Shown here in pieces: positions 1 through 4,575 of a DNA stretch of 4,575 bases. Position 1 is the stretch's first letter, and the number at the start of each line of letters is the position of its first letter. Both the position numbers and the translations under genes were made by a program. Source of the stretch: a virus (taxonomy: Duplodnaviria; Heunggongvirae; Uroviricota; Caudoviricetes); the IMG/VR virus record IMGVR_UViG_2744054627_000014, one strand, 5' to 3'. Below the pieces are notes generated by a model that was given only the letters and a program-made list of their open reading frames with translations, had not been told where the DNA came from and did no database searches.

Positions 1-122
1 TTTTCGTAGTGCAGATATGAACTTACAGATCATAGGTGTAATGATCGAACACCGTATTTACCGCCGTAAACGTTAGTATTCCCACCGTAAATATCGGGAG
101 GCGTAACAGCCTCCCGTACCCC

Positions 123-142
123 ATTTGTAAAGTCTTACAAAT
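123..142. promoter_or_regulatory. Perfect 8-bp inverted repeat ATTTGTAA-N4-TTACAAAT, candidate operator in the AT-rich leader
   Basis: ATTTGTAA at 123-130 and TTACAAAT at 135-142 are exact reverse complements. The related motifs CTTACAAAT (134-142) and CTACAAAAT (181-189), and further nested inverted repeats at 184-202, lie in the same non-coding AT-rich stretch. Confidence 0.2.
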
Positions 143-401
143 TAAATTCACTTAAATATCAATAAAGTAGTATTCACACCCTACAAAATACCACATTTGT
201 GGTTTACACAATACAACTCAAATTGTATCTTTAGCCACAAGTCGAACGGCGCGACTCTAAACCATGCGTCGGGACCGTGGCGGGACAGGATGTCGGCAAT
301 ACGGGTCAGTAAGTTCCCTTTGGGGTGCGGCGAAGCACTGTCTAATTAATACAAGTCGAAGCCGCCGAACCACTAAAGTGAACTGAATGAGGAATCACAA
401 G

Positions 402-632
402 ATGCCTAAATATAAACTGGTTAATGACCTGGCTATCGGCGACAAAATTGAATTCAGTGGAAAACGGATAATGGAGGTTACCCAAAAAACTGACCGCGAC
501 CAGCATAACGTTAGCCTGACTCTAGTTAACAAACATACAGGTTCTGCGACCAATACTTGTTTTAACCGAATGGATACCGTCGTCCTTCCCCATAACAATC
601 CTCTGAATCCTCCATGTAATTGCTGTGTGTAG
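402..632 (+). CDS. Hypothetical small protein, 76 aa, Cys-rich C-terminus (..PPCNCCV); alternative in-frame start at 387
   Basis: ORF in track (387..632). ATG at 402 has a GAGGA Shine-Dalgarno at 389-393 with 8-nt spacing; ATG at 387 has none. Stop TAG 630-632 is followed directly by a hairpin plus T-run terminator. No recognisable domain. Confidence 0.5.
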   Translation: MPKYKLVNDLAIGDKIEFSGKRIMEVTQKTDRDQHNVSLTLVNKHTGSATNTCFNRMDTVVLPHNNPLNPPCNCCV

Positions 633-637
633 TCTTT

Positions 638-662
638 GCCCGCCTCAAGTGACGGGCTTTTT
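638..662 (+). terminator. Rho-independent terminator (GCCCG / CGGGC stem, 10-nt loop, T5 tail)
   Basis: GCCCG at 638-642 pairs with CGGGC at 653-657, immediately followed by TTTTT at 658-662, 6 nt after the stop of the 402-632 ORF. Confidence 0.55.
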
Positions 663-865
663 ATGTCTGAAAGCGCACTCGCAACAGCGTGCTCCCCGAT
701 ATGAAAAAGGAATACAACCGATGAAACCTGAACACATCCATAGACTGACGGGGCGCGATGTTCTCCGTTATCGCCGTAAAACTTCGATTTGATGACCGGT
801 CTGGCCGTTGCCACTGCGCTCGGTCTGATCATCACTTTCATTCTCCTTGTAGCGAGGACCACAGT

Positions 866-1863
866 ATGAGTTTAGAAACCAGTCTAGAACTTAATAATCA
901 ACTTCTGGCACAACATAATGCGCTGCTTGAACGTCTTATCCGCACAATGGCATCAGGTATTGTTATGCATCCTGACACGATTTCACGAGTGCAGGAATGT
1001 CGGGATACAGCAACTGAAACTGAAAATATGTCAGCGGCAATGACACTGGATGATCTGGAGTTCAGCGACGTTATCGCACTGGCTGGTTTCTACCCGGTAG
1101 CCACCCCTATCACAGAAGACATGCTGCAACGTGCTGTTGCCTACCGTGATGCTGAAGGCGATAAACGAGTAGTTCAGATTGATGCTCTCGACAGCGCATT
1201 ACAGGGCGTCAAACGAGCCAGAGCGCTGCTTAAACCTGCTCTCCTGGACCTGTCCCGTAACATTCTTAAGTTCTGGGACGACCTGCCAACCATCGGCGAG
1301 CGACGTGCTTTTGCCGAGCAGCTACTTGATGCACCTGCAGATGGGCGTGATGAAGTTAAGCCGAAAAAGGCCAGTAACAAAGATGGAGAACGCACGGGGC
1401 CGTTTTACGTCAAAAATATATCCGGCACAGCAGCCAGTGAACTCCACACCTTACGCAAGTTGAACGAGATGCTTAAAAAGGCTATATCGAGATCAACCGT
1501 GTTGAGTACCTTCAGCTGCAGGAAGAATTTGCACGCAGAGACGCAGCAAATTCCAGCCAGAATAATGACGCCAAAGATGACCATACAATTGATTTCGCGG
1601 CACTACGCAAACAAGCTGAAGGGTTGATCCTCCAGTTAGCAAAAGGGGGTTACCGGGCAGAAGCTATTGCAATTCTGGAAAAACAGGGAGCCAGGAAACT
1701 TGGTGAAGTAACGGATGAAAATCTCGCTGAAGTAATCACCCTGGCTGAAAAGCACTGGAGGGTTAATTATGCCAGACGTTCATGCACGACTTTCCCCGTC
1801 ATCGGCGCATCGATGGATGCGCTGCCCAGGAAGTCTGGCGCTGGAGGCCACACAACCGGATAA
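866..1863 (+). CDS. Hypothetical phage protein, about 330 aa if frame-corrected; apparent single-base frameshift in the A5 run at 1475-1479; 3' end uncertain
   Basis: ATG 866 is preceded by GAGGA (854-858, 7-nt spacer); the in-frame stretch from 758 to 865 translates to low-complexity, non-protein-like sequence. Frame 2 reads ..[10 protein letters not shown] and then degenerates, while frame 1 continues from the same point with protein-like sequence ([32 protein letters not shown]) to 1863. No family recognised. Confidence 0.5.
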
Positions 1864-3070
1864 AGAAACAACTTTTGCAATCGAGGGCACTGCAGCGCAC
1901 GCGCTTGCTGAAAAAGTTCTACGAAACAGGCAAAGCCACCCGGAACACTACGCCGGATGCAATGTTTCTATGTTTCTCGGCTCATACCCCCTTCGCGAAA
2001 ATCCTGATGATACATCTGGCCCACAGGTGGATGATGAAATGGTCGAAGCCGTTGGCCGGTATGTTGATACGGTCTGGACTCTTGCACAGAATAATGAACT
2101 ATTGGTTGAACAACTTGTTGATTTCTCACATATAACGGGTGTGGAAGAATCTTTCGGAACTGCCGACGGCATAATCATCGCGGGTAACGAATTACAAATC
2201 CACGACCTGAAATATGGCAAAGGCGTCCGCATTGATGCAGAACAAAATGAGCAACTACAACTGTATGCTCTGGGTGCGCTCGAACAATTCAGCATGCTGT
2301 ATGACTTTGAGACTGTAAGATTATTTATTCACCAGCCAAGGCTCAACCACGTTTCAGAATGGTCGTTAACCGTACAGGAACTTCAGTCTTTCGGTGAACG
2401 GGCACTGGAGGCCGCAACCAGTGCGATCCTTGTTCTCAATATTGCTGAATGCGAAGGCATTGAGACACTACCGCTGGAAAACTTCATACCTGGAGAAAAA
2501 CAGTGCCGCTTCTGTAAAGCAAAAGCTATTTGCACTGCCCAGAAAATGCAGCATTTACAAACAGCGGCCAGCGACTTTGAAGATCTGACAAAGCCTGTCA
2601 GCGAAATAATCACCAATGCCAGCGCACGTGTACCTCTGTTAACCATTGAGCAGCTTGCGGAGATCTATAGCCAGGCCGACTTTATTGAATCCTGGCTAAA
2701 GGCAGTACGGGACCGGGTTCACAATGAACTCAATGCCGGACATCCGGTACCGGGGTTTAAACTGGTAACAGGAAAACAAGGTAACCGGGCCTGGAGTGAT
2801 GAAGAGGCAGCTCGCGCACTTCTGAAGGACCAGTTCAGGTACAAAACTGAAGAAGTATTCGACTTTAAACTTATTAGTCCCACAAAAGCCGAAAAACTTA
2901 TCAAAAAGGCCAGTCCGCGCCGTTGGTCAAAAGTCGAGGCACTGATAACACGAGCTGATGGTAAACCCACCGTCGTTCCCGAGTCAGACCCACGCCCCGC
3001 ACTCAATATCAACCCTGTAAATGATTTCGACGACGTATCCGACGATACGCTAACCGCAGACCTCATCTGA
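1769..3070 (+). CDS. PD-(D/E)XK family nuclease, Cas4-like / RecB-like exonuclease (DUF2800 type), 433 aa, intact
   Basis: GGAGG at 1757-1761 sits 7 nt upstream of ATG 1769. N-terminal [14 protein letters not shown] motif, nuclease core GTADG...IHDLKYGKG (D...D-x-K, about 2203-2226), QLQLY (QhxxY) motif, and a CxxCx5C cluster ([10 protein letters not shown], about 2504-2533) which with the N-terminal Cys resembles the four-Cys Fe-S arrangement of Cas4/AddB nucleases. Single uninterrupted 1.3 kb ORF. Confidence 0.85.
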
Positions 3071-3085
3071 TTTAAGGAAATACCC

Positions 3086-3630
3086 ATGAAACTGAAGCTG
3101 AACAATGTTCGTCTGGCCTTCCCGTCTCTGTTTGAAGCTAAAACTGTAAACGGCGAAGGCGATCCGCGTTTCTCCGCAGTATTTTTAATGTCTCCCAAAC
3201 ACCCACAACTGGAAGAAATCCGTAAAGCTATGAAGCAGGTAGCGAAGGAAAATGGGGGAGAAGTGGGAGTCCATTTATAACCAGCTGGAGAAAAACTCAA
3301 TCTGTGCCTGCATGATGGTGATGAAAAGCAGAGTATGAAGGCTTTCCCGGCAATTTCTTCCTGAACGCTGCTAACAAAGCGCGCCCAGCTGTTCTTGATC
3401 GCGATCGTTCGCCACTAATTCAGGCTGATGGACGTCCCTATGCAGGGTGCTATGTAAACGCCGTTATCGATATCTGGGCACAGGACAATAATTTCGGTAA
3501 ACGCATTAATGCCTCACTCGGCGGAGTCCAGTTCCTGCGAGACGGCGATGCATTCGCTGGCGGCGGAGTGGCAAGCGCTGACGATTTTGACGATATCAGC
3601 GAAGGTGCTGATGCTGAAGCACTGATTTGA
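3086..3630 (+). pseudogene. DUF2815-type phage protein (putative ssDNA-binding partner of DUF2800), reading frame broken by three +/-1 frameshifts as written
   Basis: AAGGA at 3074-3078 sits 7 nt upstream of ATG 3086. N-terminus MKLKLNNVRLAFPSLFEAKTVNGEGDPRFSAVFLMSPKHPQ matches the family as I recall it. Protein-like sequence continues across frames 2 -> 0 -> 2 -> 1 (..KWESIYNQLEK / KLNLCLHDGDEK / EYEGFPGNFFLNAANKARPAVLDRDRSPLIQADGRPYAGCYVNAVIDIWAQDNNFGKRINASLGGVQFLRDGDAF..) to TGA 3628-3630. Shifts are at 3249-3258 (A4/G5), 3291-3295 (A5) and 3324-3327 (A4). Confidence 0.8.
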
Positions 3631-3639
3631 GTATCTATG

Positions 3640-3676
3640 CAGCCCTCATTTAATTGTGGGCTGTTTAATTTTTGTT
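3640..3676 (+). terminator. Putative rho-independent terminator downstream of DUF2815 (CAGCCC / GGGCTG stem, 12-nt loop, T-rich tail)
   Basis: CAGCCC at 3640-3645 pairs with GGGCTG at 3658-3663, followed by TTTAATTTTTGTT (3664-3676); starts 10 nt after the DUF2815 stop. Confidence 0.45.
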
Positions 3677-4170
3677 CCTCTTTCAATGAACGAACTTTAT
3701 TATCATATATTCTTTGTGCGAATTCGTTAATTTGCTTAGTTAAGTTGGAATCTAACTTATAATATTTTCCGCCCACTCTATTAAATTCTTCCTCATTATT
3801 ATTTTGGGTTCAATTTGATTAATTCTATTTAAATGCATATCACGACCATTTTCAAAGTTAAAATATGCTTGGTCACTAACGTTCTGCCCATCAATTGTAT
3901 AAGTAGTACCACTTGCATGGAAAGATATTTGAGTCTTTTTACCCGCATATAGTTCATTATGTATAGCTTTATCAGTACTTATTATTCGCAGCCATATCCA
4001 AAACTTATCATTAAGAATATATTTATCAATCAATTTTTAATATTAAAAAAATCTCTGCCTATCAGTAATAGAGGCATCAGAAAATAAACACCAAGAAAAC
4101 TCAACGCAGCTGTAATAATAGATTGAAAAAGATATTGATAATTCCATTTTATTCTCCAGAAATTAGACAT
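3646..4170 (-). CDS. Hypothetical protein with a predicted N-terminal transmembrane helix, encoded antisense in the AT-rich island; frame interrupted at homopolymers; both ends uncertain
   Basis: Minus-strand ATG (complement of 4168-4170) opens a 46-aa frame [46 protein letters not shown] (one strongly hydrophobic segment), stopping at 4030-4032. One base added in the T5 run at 4034-4038 would join it to track ORF 3752..4033 (..LIDKYILNDKFWIWLR...NLIEWAEN). A second shift at the T4 run 3765-3768 joins the only frame that stays open through the AT-rich DNA at 3640-3776 (YYKLDSNLTKQINEFAQRIYDNKVRSLKEEQK). A possible stop TGA (complement of 3646-3648) would need a third shift at 3669-3673. No good Shine-Dalgarno at 4170; an alternative ATG at 4147 has GGAGA-N5-ATG but a different frame. 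Confidence 0.35.
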
Positions 4171-4575
4171 GAATAGTATACTATGGGGCGACCTGGAAAC
4201 CTATTGTGACATTCCGATCAACAACGGTACCCATGCGTATGCCGAAGGCGTTGAAGTGATGCTTTTCGCATGGGCTATCAACGACGGGCCAGTAAACGTG
4301 TGGGATATCACTGCCGGTGGTGGTATTCCACACGGCTTATACGAAGCAATCGCAGACCCTGAAACCCTGCTTTATTTCCATAACTCTCACTTCGACCGCA
4401 CCGTTCTGCGTTATGCAATGCCGCGACTGGCACCGCCTGTCGAACGTTGGCGCGACACGATGGTGCAGGCGCTGGCGCACGGTCTCCCGGGTCTCTGGGG
4501 GAACTCTGCGAAGTACTAGGCGTCCCGCAAGACAAAGCGAAGGACAAAGAAGGTAAAGCGCTGATCCAGCTGTCT
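4169..4575 (+). CDS. DNA polymerase, family A (phage PolA-like), N-terminal 3'-5' exonuclease domain; partial, continues past window end; one frameshift near 4486-4492
   Basis: N-terminus [36 protein letters not shown] carries the Exo I D-x-E motif (DLET, 4190-4201). Frame 2 stops at TAG 4517-4519, but frame 1 continues from about 4492 with protein-like sequence ([27 protein letters not shown]) to the window edge; the shift lies in the CCCGGG run at 4486-4491. Weak or absent Shine-Dalgarno. Confidence 0.8.

Follow-up and report, generated by a model that had tools for sequence, protein, structure and literature searches.

An AT-rich island between DUF2815 and polA carries an antisense gene

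The window analyzed here, a 4,575-nucleotide (nt) stretch of the IMG/VR virus record IMGVR_UViG_2744054627_000014 (Caudoviricetes), contains an AT-rich island within a phage replication module, and this island holds a small antisense gene, hereafter the cargo gene. The island (positions 3631-4168, 538 nt) spans the entire gap between two conserved plus-strand genes. On its left lies DUF2815, which encodes an Enc34-type single-stranded DNA-binding protein (3086-3630, stop codon at 3628-3630), and on its right the 5' end of polA, the gene for a family A DNA polymerase (4169-4575, start codon at 4169). Both flanks had been named in the initial annotation of this sequence, and they agree with the annotation of the Escherichia coli A16 prophage described below and with Pfam matches in related loci (PF10991 and PF00476, respectively). 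The GC content of the island is 0.294, compared with 0.487 in the remaining window, and the lowest value among windows of equal size in positions 1-3630 is 0.429, which bears out a compositional contrast first judged by eye. On the plus strand of the island, open reading frames (ORFs) reach only 39-42 amino acids; the minus strand holds three abutting ORFs (4170-4030, 4033-3752, and the start of 3776-3450). No iteron-like repeats were found in the island, and the window has no match to Rfam or known RNA families.

A megablast comparison with 5,426 complete E. coli genomes located the island in a single one, that of strain A16 (NZ_CP028758.1), at 98.8% identity and within a prophage integrated beside yfhL. 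In this genome, an intact minus-strand coding sequence of 166 amino acids (WP_042969540.1, hypothetical protein) lies between genes annotated as “DUF2815 family protein” and “DNA polymerase,” confirming that the coding potential of the island is on the opposite strand. In pairwise alignments with the A16 allele, the window differs by five single-nucleotide indels between 3669 and 4122, namely deletions at 3669 and 3765 and insertions at 4032, 4045, and 4122. These are part of a broader pattern: across positions 611-4573, the window and A16 differ by 41 substitutions and 15 single-base indels, almost all of the latter in homopolymer runs. The indels shift the reading frame of every gene in the window, including a gene for a 300-amino-acid hypothetical protein, DUF2815 (four times, at 3249, 3254, 3291, and 3324), the cargo gene (five times), and the 5' end of polA (once). 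Because the 15 indels affect all genes and nearly all fall in homopolymers, the breaks in the cargo ORF are assembly-wide read errors and not decay of the cargo gene, as the initial annotation had suspected. A pseudogene in the window was rejected on the same grounds, and the source assembly needs polishing.

After correction, the cargo gene extends from 4147 to 3646 on the minus strand (ATG at 4147-4145, TGA at 3648-3646) and encodes a predicted bitopic membrane protein of 166 amino acids. Its homologues measure 163-176 amino acids and all begin with MEL(S/T)(I/V)SFST; a start at 4170 (MSNFWRIK...) was discarded as an artefact of the base inserted at 4122. At the composition of the island, the probability that 166 codons remain open by chance is 1.4e-7, and the two closest alleles (75% amino-acid identity) have a ratio of nonsynonymous to synonymous substitution rates (dN/dS) of 0.15. 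The ORF is conserved among relatives.

Family membership and predicted membrane topology

The A16 protein matches no family in Pfam, NCBIfam, PHROGs, or PADLOC. A word-indexed search returned only ten clusters, from Citrobacter, E. coli, Salmonella, and Serratia, whereas an exhaustive search with a profile, run against 1.84 billion representatives, recovered 82 sequences at E <= 0.001, of which 47 reached E <= 1e-10; nearly all are 150-180 amino acids long. Within PADLOC-DB 2.0, the best hit of the query was Cas6, at a non-significant E of 0.012, and 70 family members gave four one-off hits, each with E >= 2e-4. None of the members hits any PHROG family at E <= 0.001. The family is uncurated, with no counterpart among known families or folds. 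For locus scanning, the whole-family profile was too diverse, and a profile of the close subfamily was tried; the first genome scan with it produced no match. A literature search on the accession, the name of the related phage, and the DUF2800/DUF2815 pair found nothing about the DUF2815-polA slot.

The alignment of 70 members reveals that P25 and R31 are invariant, D32 is conserved in 92%, and Y21 in 81%. P25, R31, and D32 all lie at the cytoplasmic end of a single, strongly hydrophobic segment (residues ~5-29, Kyte-Doolittle 19-residue mean 2.23), which is the only such segment in the protein and corresponds to positions 4060-4135 on the minus strand. The remaining soluble part comprises approximately 135 amino acids. 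The prediction of one N-terminal transmembrane helix followed by a soluble domain of about 130 residues and of no recognized family therefore survives the hydropathy analysis and the family searches. Before the helix lies a brief acidic segment (median 10 residues) that averages 0.19 K+R and 1.34 D+E per member, and the 15 residues after the helix carry a mean of 2.61 K+R; this excess of K+R on the C-terminal side is present in 68 of the 70 members. Following the positive-inside rule, the N-terminal tail is predicted to be periplasmic and the mostly helical domain to lie on the cytoplasmic face of the inner membrane. One hydrophobic helix with a positive-inside bias also predicts an integral inner-membrane protein, a property shared with superinfection-exclusion proteins of the SieA type.

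An AlphaFold2 model built from nine sequences has a mean predicted local distance difference test (pLDDT) score of 89.4. It consists of a long helix (residues 7-43), a second helix (46-66), a three-stranded meander (71-89), and two further helices (91-128 and 135-161). Weaker motifs include “Y-I-x4-VS-x2-E” in the meander and “KHYKQ...NPI” in a distant branch of the family. Neither a fold nor a PDB match was obtained for the protein, and the searches gave no sign of a DNA-binding fold.

A hotspot for interchangeable cargo between DUF2815 and polA

Of the 5,426 complete E. coli genomes, 159 (~3%) contain the DUF2800-DUF2815-polA block. It matches well in 140 of these, and 139 of the 140 carry unrelated sequence in place of the island. 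The inserts fall into at least four mutually unrelated types, found in 67, 59, 13, and 1 genomes, the last being the A16 gene. The most frequent type is an antisense 209-amino-acid protein with three hydrophobic segments (L004:2119-2748, minus strand, GC 0.29), which also occurs in vB_EcoM-606R2 (ON470579.1, locus L005), a phage that has been induced and sequenced. The second, present in 59 genomes and at full length in 26, combines a forward Nmad5 gene with an antisense gene for a soluble protein of 229 amino acids (L002:2118-3442). Nmad5, a “nucleotide modification” gene (E 4e-54), provides the only Pfam hit among the alternative cargos. The third, in 13 genomes, is an antisense 199-amino-acid membrane protein with three hydrophobic segments (L003:2093-2692, minus strand, GC 0.32).

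The 199- and 209-amino-acid cargos share an AT-rich composition and an arrangement of one N-terminal and two C-terminal hydrophobic segments, and neither matches a family; a BLASTP alignment of their last 45 residues (E 0.017) hints at a weak relationship between the two. Remote homology of these two proteins, and of a 208-amino-acid protein from Serratia described below, to the cargo family was considered and rejected, as hhalign assigned it a probability below 1%. In one genome (H74), an IS1 element is inserted in the Nmad5/229-amino-acid cargo.

Conserved flanks with four mutually non-homologous cargo types between them define this junction as a hotspot for cargo in an Enterobacterales prophage lineage. 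The initial annotation described the island as a foreign, oppositely oriented insert of the moron type. This holds insofar as the junction is occupied by other, unrelated genes in closely related prophages and the composition of the island departs from that of its flanks. The island is not, however, a one-off insertion between genes that are otherwise adjacent: an empty junction was seen in none of the 14 related loci examined, and in several genera a deeply diverged homologue of the cargo fills the slot. In our judgment, it is close to certain that the window encodes a genuine cargo gene, that its product is membrane-anchored, and that the gene sits in a hotspot.

Homologues in the same slot are diverged alleles built of two modules

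Six IMG/VR contigs, together with loci from Serratia, Klebsiella, and a metagenome, carry homologues in antisense orientation between the Enc34-type single-stranded DNA-binding gene and polA; the slot is occupied in this way in prophages of Citrobacter, Salmonella, Klebsiella, and Serratia. Between lineages, the flanking proteins are 87-97% identical and the cargo proteins 32-40%. For instance, between loci L006 and L010 the flanks have dN values of 0.014-0.017 and dS values of 0.31-0.40, whereas the cargo has a dN of 0.67 and a saturated dS. Because the dS of the cargo is also far above that of the flanks, these values point to recombinational exchange among old allelic lineages rather than to relaxed constraint alone.

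Divergence is unevenly distributed along the protein. Among the prophage alleles, residues 1-35 have a mean identity of 0.77, and residues 36-166 a mean of 0.35, with 18-29% between lineages. Synonymous positions of codons 1-35 have reached saturation (mean proportion of synonymous differences, pS, 0.69) and the proportion of nonsynonymous differences (pN) is 0.165. A DNA flank shared through recombination was considered as the source of the N-terminal conservation and was ruled out by this saturation, which points to purifying selection at the protein level. Judged from these alignments, the protein is composed of two evolutionary modules: a conserved one formed by the N-terminal tail, the helix, and the juxtamembrane region (P25, R31, D32), and a variable cytoplasmic domain. 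Since the membrane helix is more conserved than the soluble domain, it may engage in specific helix contacts, which suggests self-association or a membrane partner.

In the Serratia loci L012-L014 (5342-5968), the slot holds two antisense genes, a family member and the gene for the unrelated 208-amino-acid protein mentioned above.

Distant members occur in integrons and defense islands

Beyond the prophage slot, a family member of Stutzerimonas kunmingensis (L027:7959-8459) is located between attC copies at 7381-7465 and 8504-8536. The repeat is of the attC type, approximately 80 nt long, with an RYYYAAC start and a GTTRRRY end, and the array contains at least 8 copies (4124-13239). A divergent IntI-like recombinase of 341 amino acids, with Phage_int_SAM_4 and Phage_integrase domains, is encoded nearby (2549-3574, minus strand). 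A single ORF bounded by attC sites with an integrase in its vicinity is the layout of an integron cassette, which applies to this member and not to the window. Similarly, two metagenomic contigs (L025 and L033) have the layout of cassette arrays with attC-like spacer ends.

Other members adjoin known defense genes. In the metagenomic loci L035/L036 (member P0108; L035:1206-11063), HsdR-HsdM-HsdS and the Kiwa genes KwaA-KwaB are followed directly by the family member, and downstream of it are another N6 methyltransferase and a specificity-like protein. In L018 (member P0028), the neighbors are HEPN_AbiU2, an OLD-like TOPRIM ATPase, and an N6/N4 methyltransferase. The member in Marinicellulosiphila (L028) is bracketed by 113-nt direct repeats, beside PLD-like and DUF4238 proteins. 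The family moves as a one-gene unit that recurs in accessory and defense neighborhoods, and this manner of travel argues that its members function alone. Near the Marinicellulosiphila member there is also a 47-nt tandem repeat array and a microsatellite of the (AACCCA)n type (L028:5324-5741 and 10512-10611).

Expression signals at the junction

A Shine-Dalgarno sequence, GGAG, can be read at 4154-4157 on the minus strand, 6 nt upstream of the ATG at 4147, and all loci with a family member share this arrangement. At window positions 4147-4185, and at the equivalent junction of all loci, the start codons of the cargo gene and polA are divergent and only 21 nt apart; in the window, GGAG lies inside the gap. 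Because of this spacing, the ribosome-binding regions of the two genes overlap on opposite strands, and a promoter of the cargo gene would have to sit inside the conserved 5' coding region of polA. Within that region, polA codons 3-7 (ATATACTATGGGG) show no variation among the E. coli and IMG/VR loci whatever the cargo, and vary slightly in Serratia (L012) and in a metagenome locus (L017). These codons contain -10-like hexamers on the minus strand; a matching -35 element was not found there.

Transcription of the lytic operon would run antisense through the cargo gene. By analogy with other morons, we assume that the cargo is expressed from the repressed prophage. Just past the DUF2815 stop codon, and overlapping the 3' end of the cargo gene, lies a terminator-like hairpin (3639-3675, plus strand; stem 3639-3645/3658-3664) followed by a T-rich run. 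The folding free energy of the RNA is -14.9 kcal/mol on the plus strand (z -3.65) and -11.4 kcal/mol on the minus strand (z -3.0); a strict terminator scan did not call the hairpin at 3639-3664. Each alternative cargo has its own distinct hairpin right after the DUF2815 stop codon, and in each case the cargo region ends at the polA start codon.

A putative anti-phage role

We consider it probable that the cargo has an anti-phage role of some kind. The support is circumstantial and consists of the occurrence of family members as integron cassettes, their presence in defense islands, and the contrast between a hypervariable cytoplasmic domain and a conserved membrane module. Among V. cholerae integron cassettes of previously unknown role that were tested, 18% proved to be anti-phage, including Brigantia, a protein with only a transmembrane domain (bioRxiv 10.1101/2024.07.02.601686). 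Since the gene is oriented against the lytic replication operon, the cargo would be expressed from the resident prophage. The protein might then act alone as an immunity protein, its variable cytoplasmic domain recognizing, on the inner side of the membrane, a component of the incoming phage and its conserved membrane module executing the response.

As a first guess for that response, we propose genome-entry exclusion, comparable to that of P22 SieA or HK97 gp15, with abortive infection as the closest rival. A single-gene, membrane-anchored factor of this exclusion type, carried as a prophage moron, is a tentative proposal that we regard as possible and short of probable. More generally, the family might represent a new modular type of single-gene immunity, in which the conserved membrane module serves as effector or docking element and the fast-evolving cytoplasmic domain confers specificity, shared by an Enterobacterales prophage hotspot, chromosomal integron cassettes, and defense islands of environmental Gammaproteobacteria; we would give this idea slightly less than an even chance.

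Several observations weigh against a defensive function. The proposed mechanism rests on analogy, because no catalytic-looking residue is conserved in the soluble domain and its fold has no match. Compared with PADLOC, Pfam, NCBIfam, and PHROG models, family members yield one-off chance hits only. No alternative cargo matches PADLOC, which leaves the slot with no recognized defense gene and makes its link to defense tentative. The gene is also rare, as it occurs in one of 5426 complete E. coli genomes and is absent from 50,697 phage records. Two distant members reside in housekeeping contexts, one between ilvC and pssA and the other next to an ABC transporter and a LysR gene, and, to our knowledge, most integron cassettes are not defense genes. 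Regarding expression, a strict scan for the sigma-70 consensus, a single promoter type, found no site on the minus strand of 4148-4575, and the hairpin may serve DUF2815 rather than the cargo gene, because its T-run is on the plus strand.

Abortive infection would involve the same two modules in a different manner: the cytoplasmic domain would sense a phage product, and the proline-kinked helix would self-assemble and leak or depolarize the inner membrane, so that the cell dies or arrests before phage release. The helix is conserved beyond what simple anchoring requires (Y21 81%; P25 and R31 invariant), family members adjoin the abortive-type systems Kiwa and AbiU2, and most newly found single-gene integron defenses arrested growth or killed infected cells (bioRxiv 10.1101/2024.07.02.601686). 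A lone helix, however, must oligomerize to form a pore, and sequence cannot separate this mechanism from exclusion; we judge it unlikely. An alternative outside defense is that the cargo is a lysogenic-conversion or host-physiology membrane protein (transport, envelope stress, or cell surface) that gives the lysogen a benefit in its niche. Its moron architecture, its rare and patchy occurrence, the two members amid housekeeping genes, and the many non-defense functions encoded by integron cassettes are all consistent with such a role, but a cytoplasmic domain that differs so extremely where the backbones are nearly identical fits an arms race better than a housekeeping interaction, and two independent defense-island neighborhoods also speak against it. 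On balance, this explanation is plausible but has a low probability.

The location inside the replication module, between a single-stranded DNA-binding protein and a polymerase, raises the question of whether the protein is a component of phage replication that tethers replicating DNA to the membrane. The phi29 protein p16.7 is such a membrane-anchored replication organizer, whose gene is transcribed along with early genes and is conserved in that phage group, and the cargo resembles it in its predicted N-terminal membrane helix, its small helical cytoplasmic domain, and its proximity to replication genes. Neither co-orientation with those genes nor conservation among related phages was found for the cargo, which, unlike p16.7, is antisense, dispensable, replaceable, and also present outside phages. 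In 139 of the 140 close E. coli prophages, and in vB_EcoM-606R2, unrelated proteins take its place, and its relatives in integrons and chromosomal islands have no phage replication genes around them. The antisense orientation and free replacement, together with the lack of a detectable DNA-binding fold, make a replication role very improbable. Even less credible, to the point of being hardly conceivable, is that the island is a non-coding AT-rich spacer (an origin, a promoter, or a terminator) or a dead pseudogene with chance ORFs. It is true that the window itself has no intact ORF and that AT-rich DNA beside replication genes could be an origin; nevertheless, the ORF is intact in A16 and in all relatives at a length that chance would rarely produce, the dN/dS ratio indicates constraint, the indels follow the error pattern of the entire window, and the structure model is confident. 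An origin or non-coding spacer was rejected on the basis of this ratio, the conserved ORF, and the lack of iterons.

Comparison with known systems

The anti-phage interpretation can be compared with several characterized systems. Lambdoid morons are extra genes at junctions of conserved genes, with deviant composition, and are often expressed from the prophage. The cargo resembles them in its position at a junction and in its composition. It differs in that no autonomous promoter was recognized for it and that its sole terminator-like hairpin has the T-run on the opposite strand. Among proteins of this kind, HK97 gp15 is a small inner-membrane protein that blocks DNA entry.

P22 SieA offers the closest parallel in evolutionary pattern. 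Like the cargo, SieA is prophage-encoded, has approximately 160 amino acids, resides in the inner membrane, and acts alone, properties that for the cargo are predicted (PMC10883804). Three SieA types with less than 30% identity occupy one prophage position and have the same membrane-topology prediction (PMC10883804); the cargo likewise has a fixed position in related prophages and deeply diverged types. Differences are nonetheless evident. SieA has three predicted membrane helices and the cargo protein one; the SieA gene lies between the ejection-protein gene 16 and the tailspike gene 9, whereas the cargo lies in the replication module. The conserved FxRYPxEAxxFNK motif of SieA is absent from the family sequences read, and no sequence relationship between SieA and the family was detected in the PHROG search at E <= 0.001.

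In terms of genomic organization, the slot is reminiscent of the cargo and defense hotspots of P2-like prophages and P4-like satellites, which Rousset et al. 2022 are said to have described as fixed junctions holding interchangeable, unrelated genes. Both settings place unrelated accessory genes in near-identical elements. They differ in phage lineage and junction, and the cargos of the DUF2815-polA slot match no known defense family. As for the distant members, V. cholerae Brigantia is a similar case, being a single-gene integron cassette whose product has a transmembrane domain and no other recognizable domain (bioRxiv 10.1101/2024.07.02.601686). It is likened to the family by description only and may be a different protein.

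AT-rich antisense morons in prophage hotspots are common, and the kind of element reported here would not surprise a specialist. What is new is the family, its modular evolution, the junction as a hotspot, and the distribution across prophages, integrons, and defense islands. If protective, the cargo would add to the known systems an immunity gene that is very small, membrane-based, and self-contained, and that is related to none of them. A protective cargo would also mark DUF2815-polA as a cargo hotspot in which three more uncharacterized antisense proteins are found, two of them membrane proteins (13 and 67 genomes). Specificity could then be mapped by domain swaps, for which the alleles in near-identical prophage backbones form a natural series. 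In addition, the mobility of the family as both prophage moron and integron cassette connects two accessory-gene reservoirs that are as a rule studied apart.

Other variable genes in the replication module

Elsewhere in the same replication module, an antisense gene lies between cytosine methyltransferase/VRR-NUC genes and an SNF2 gene (L001:24385-24705, minus strand, and L006:2931-3230). Its products in A16 and L006 are 34% identical, and those of its neighbors 92-95%; it may represent a second fast-diverging cargo slot. Accessory genes of other types were also observed in this module. In Klebsiella, a CAP12/PCTIR TIR-domain protein is encoded downstream of polA (L016:3038-3799), and a metagenome contig carries the gene for a PAPS-reductase-family protein of 430 amino acids (L017:2367-3659). 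Finally, positions 1-610 of the window, unlike the remainder, do not align to the A16 prophage; this segment, where an ORF of 81 amino acids begins (387-632, plus strand), appears to be a further variable region upstream of the replication block.

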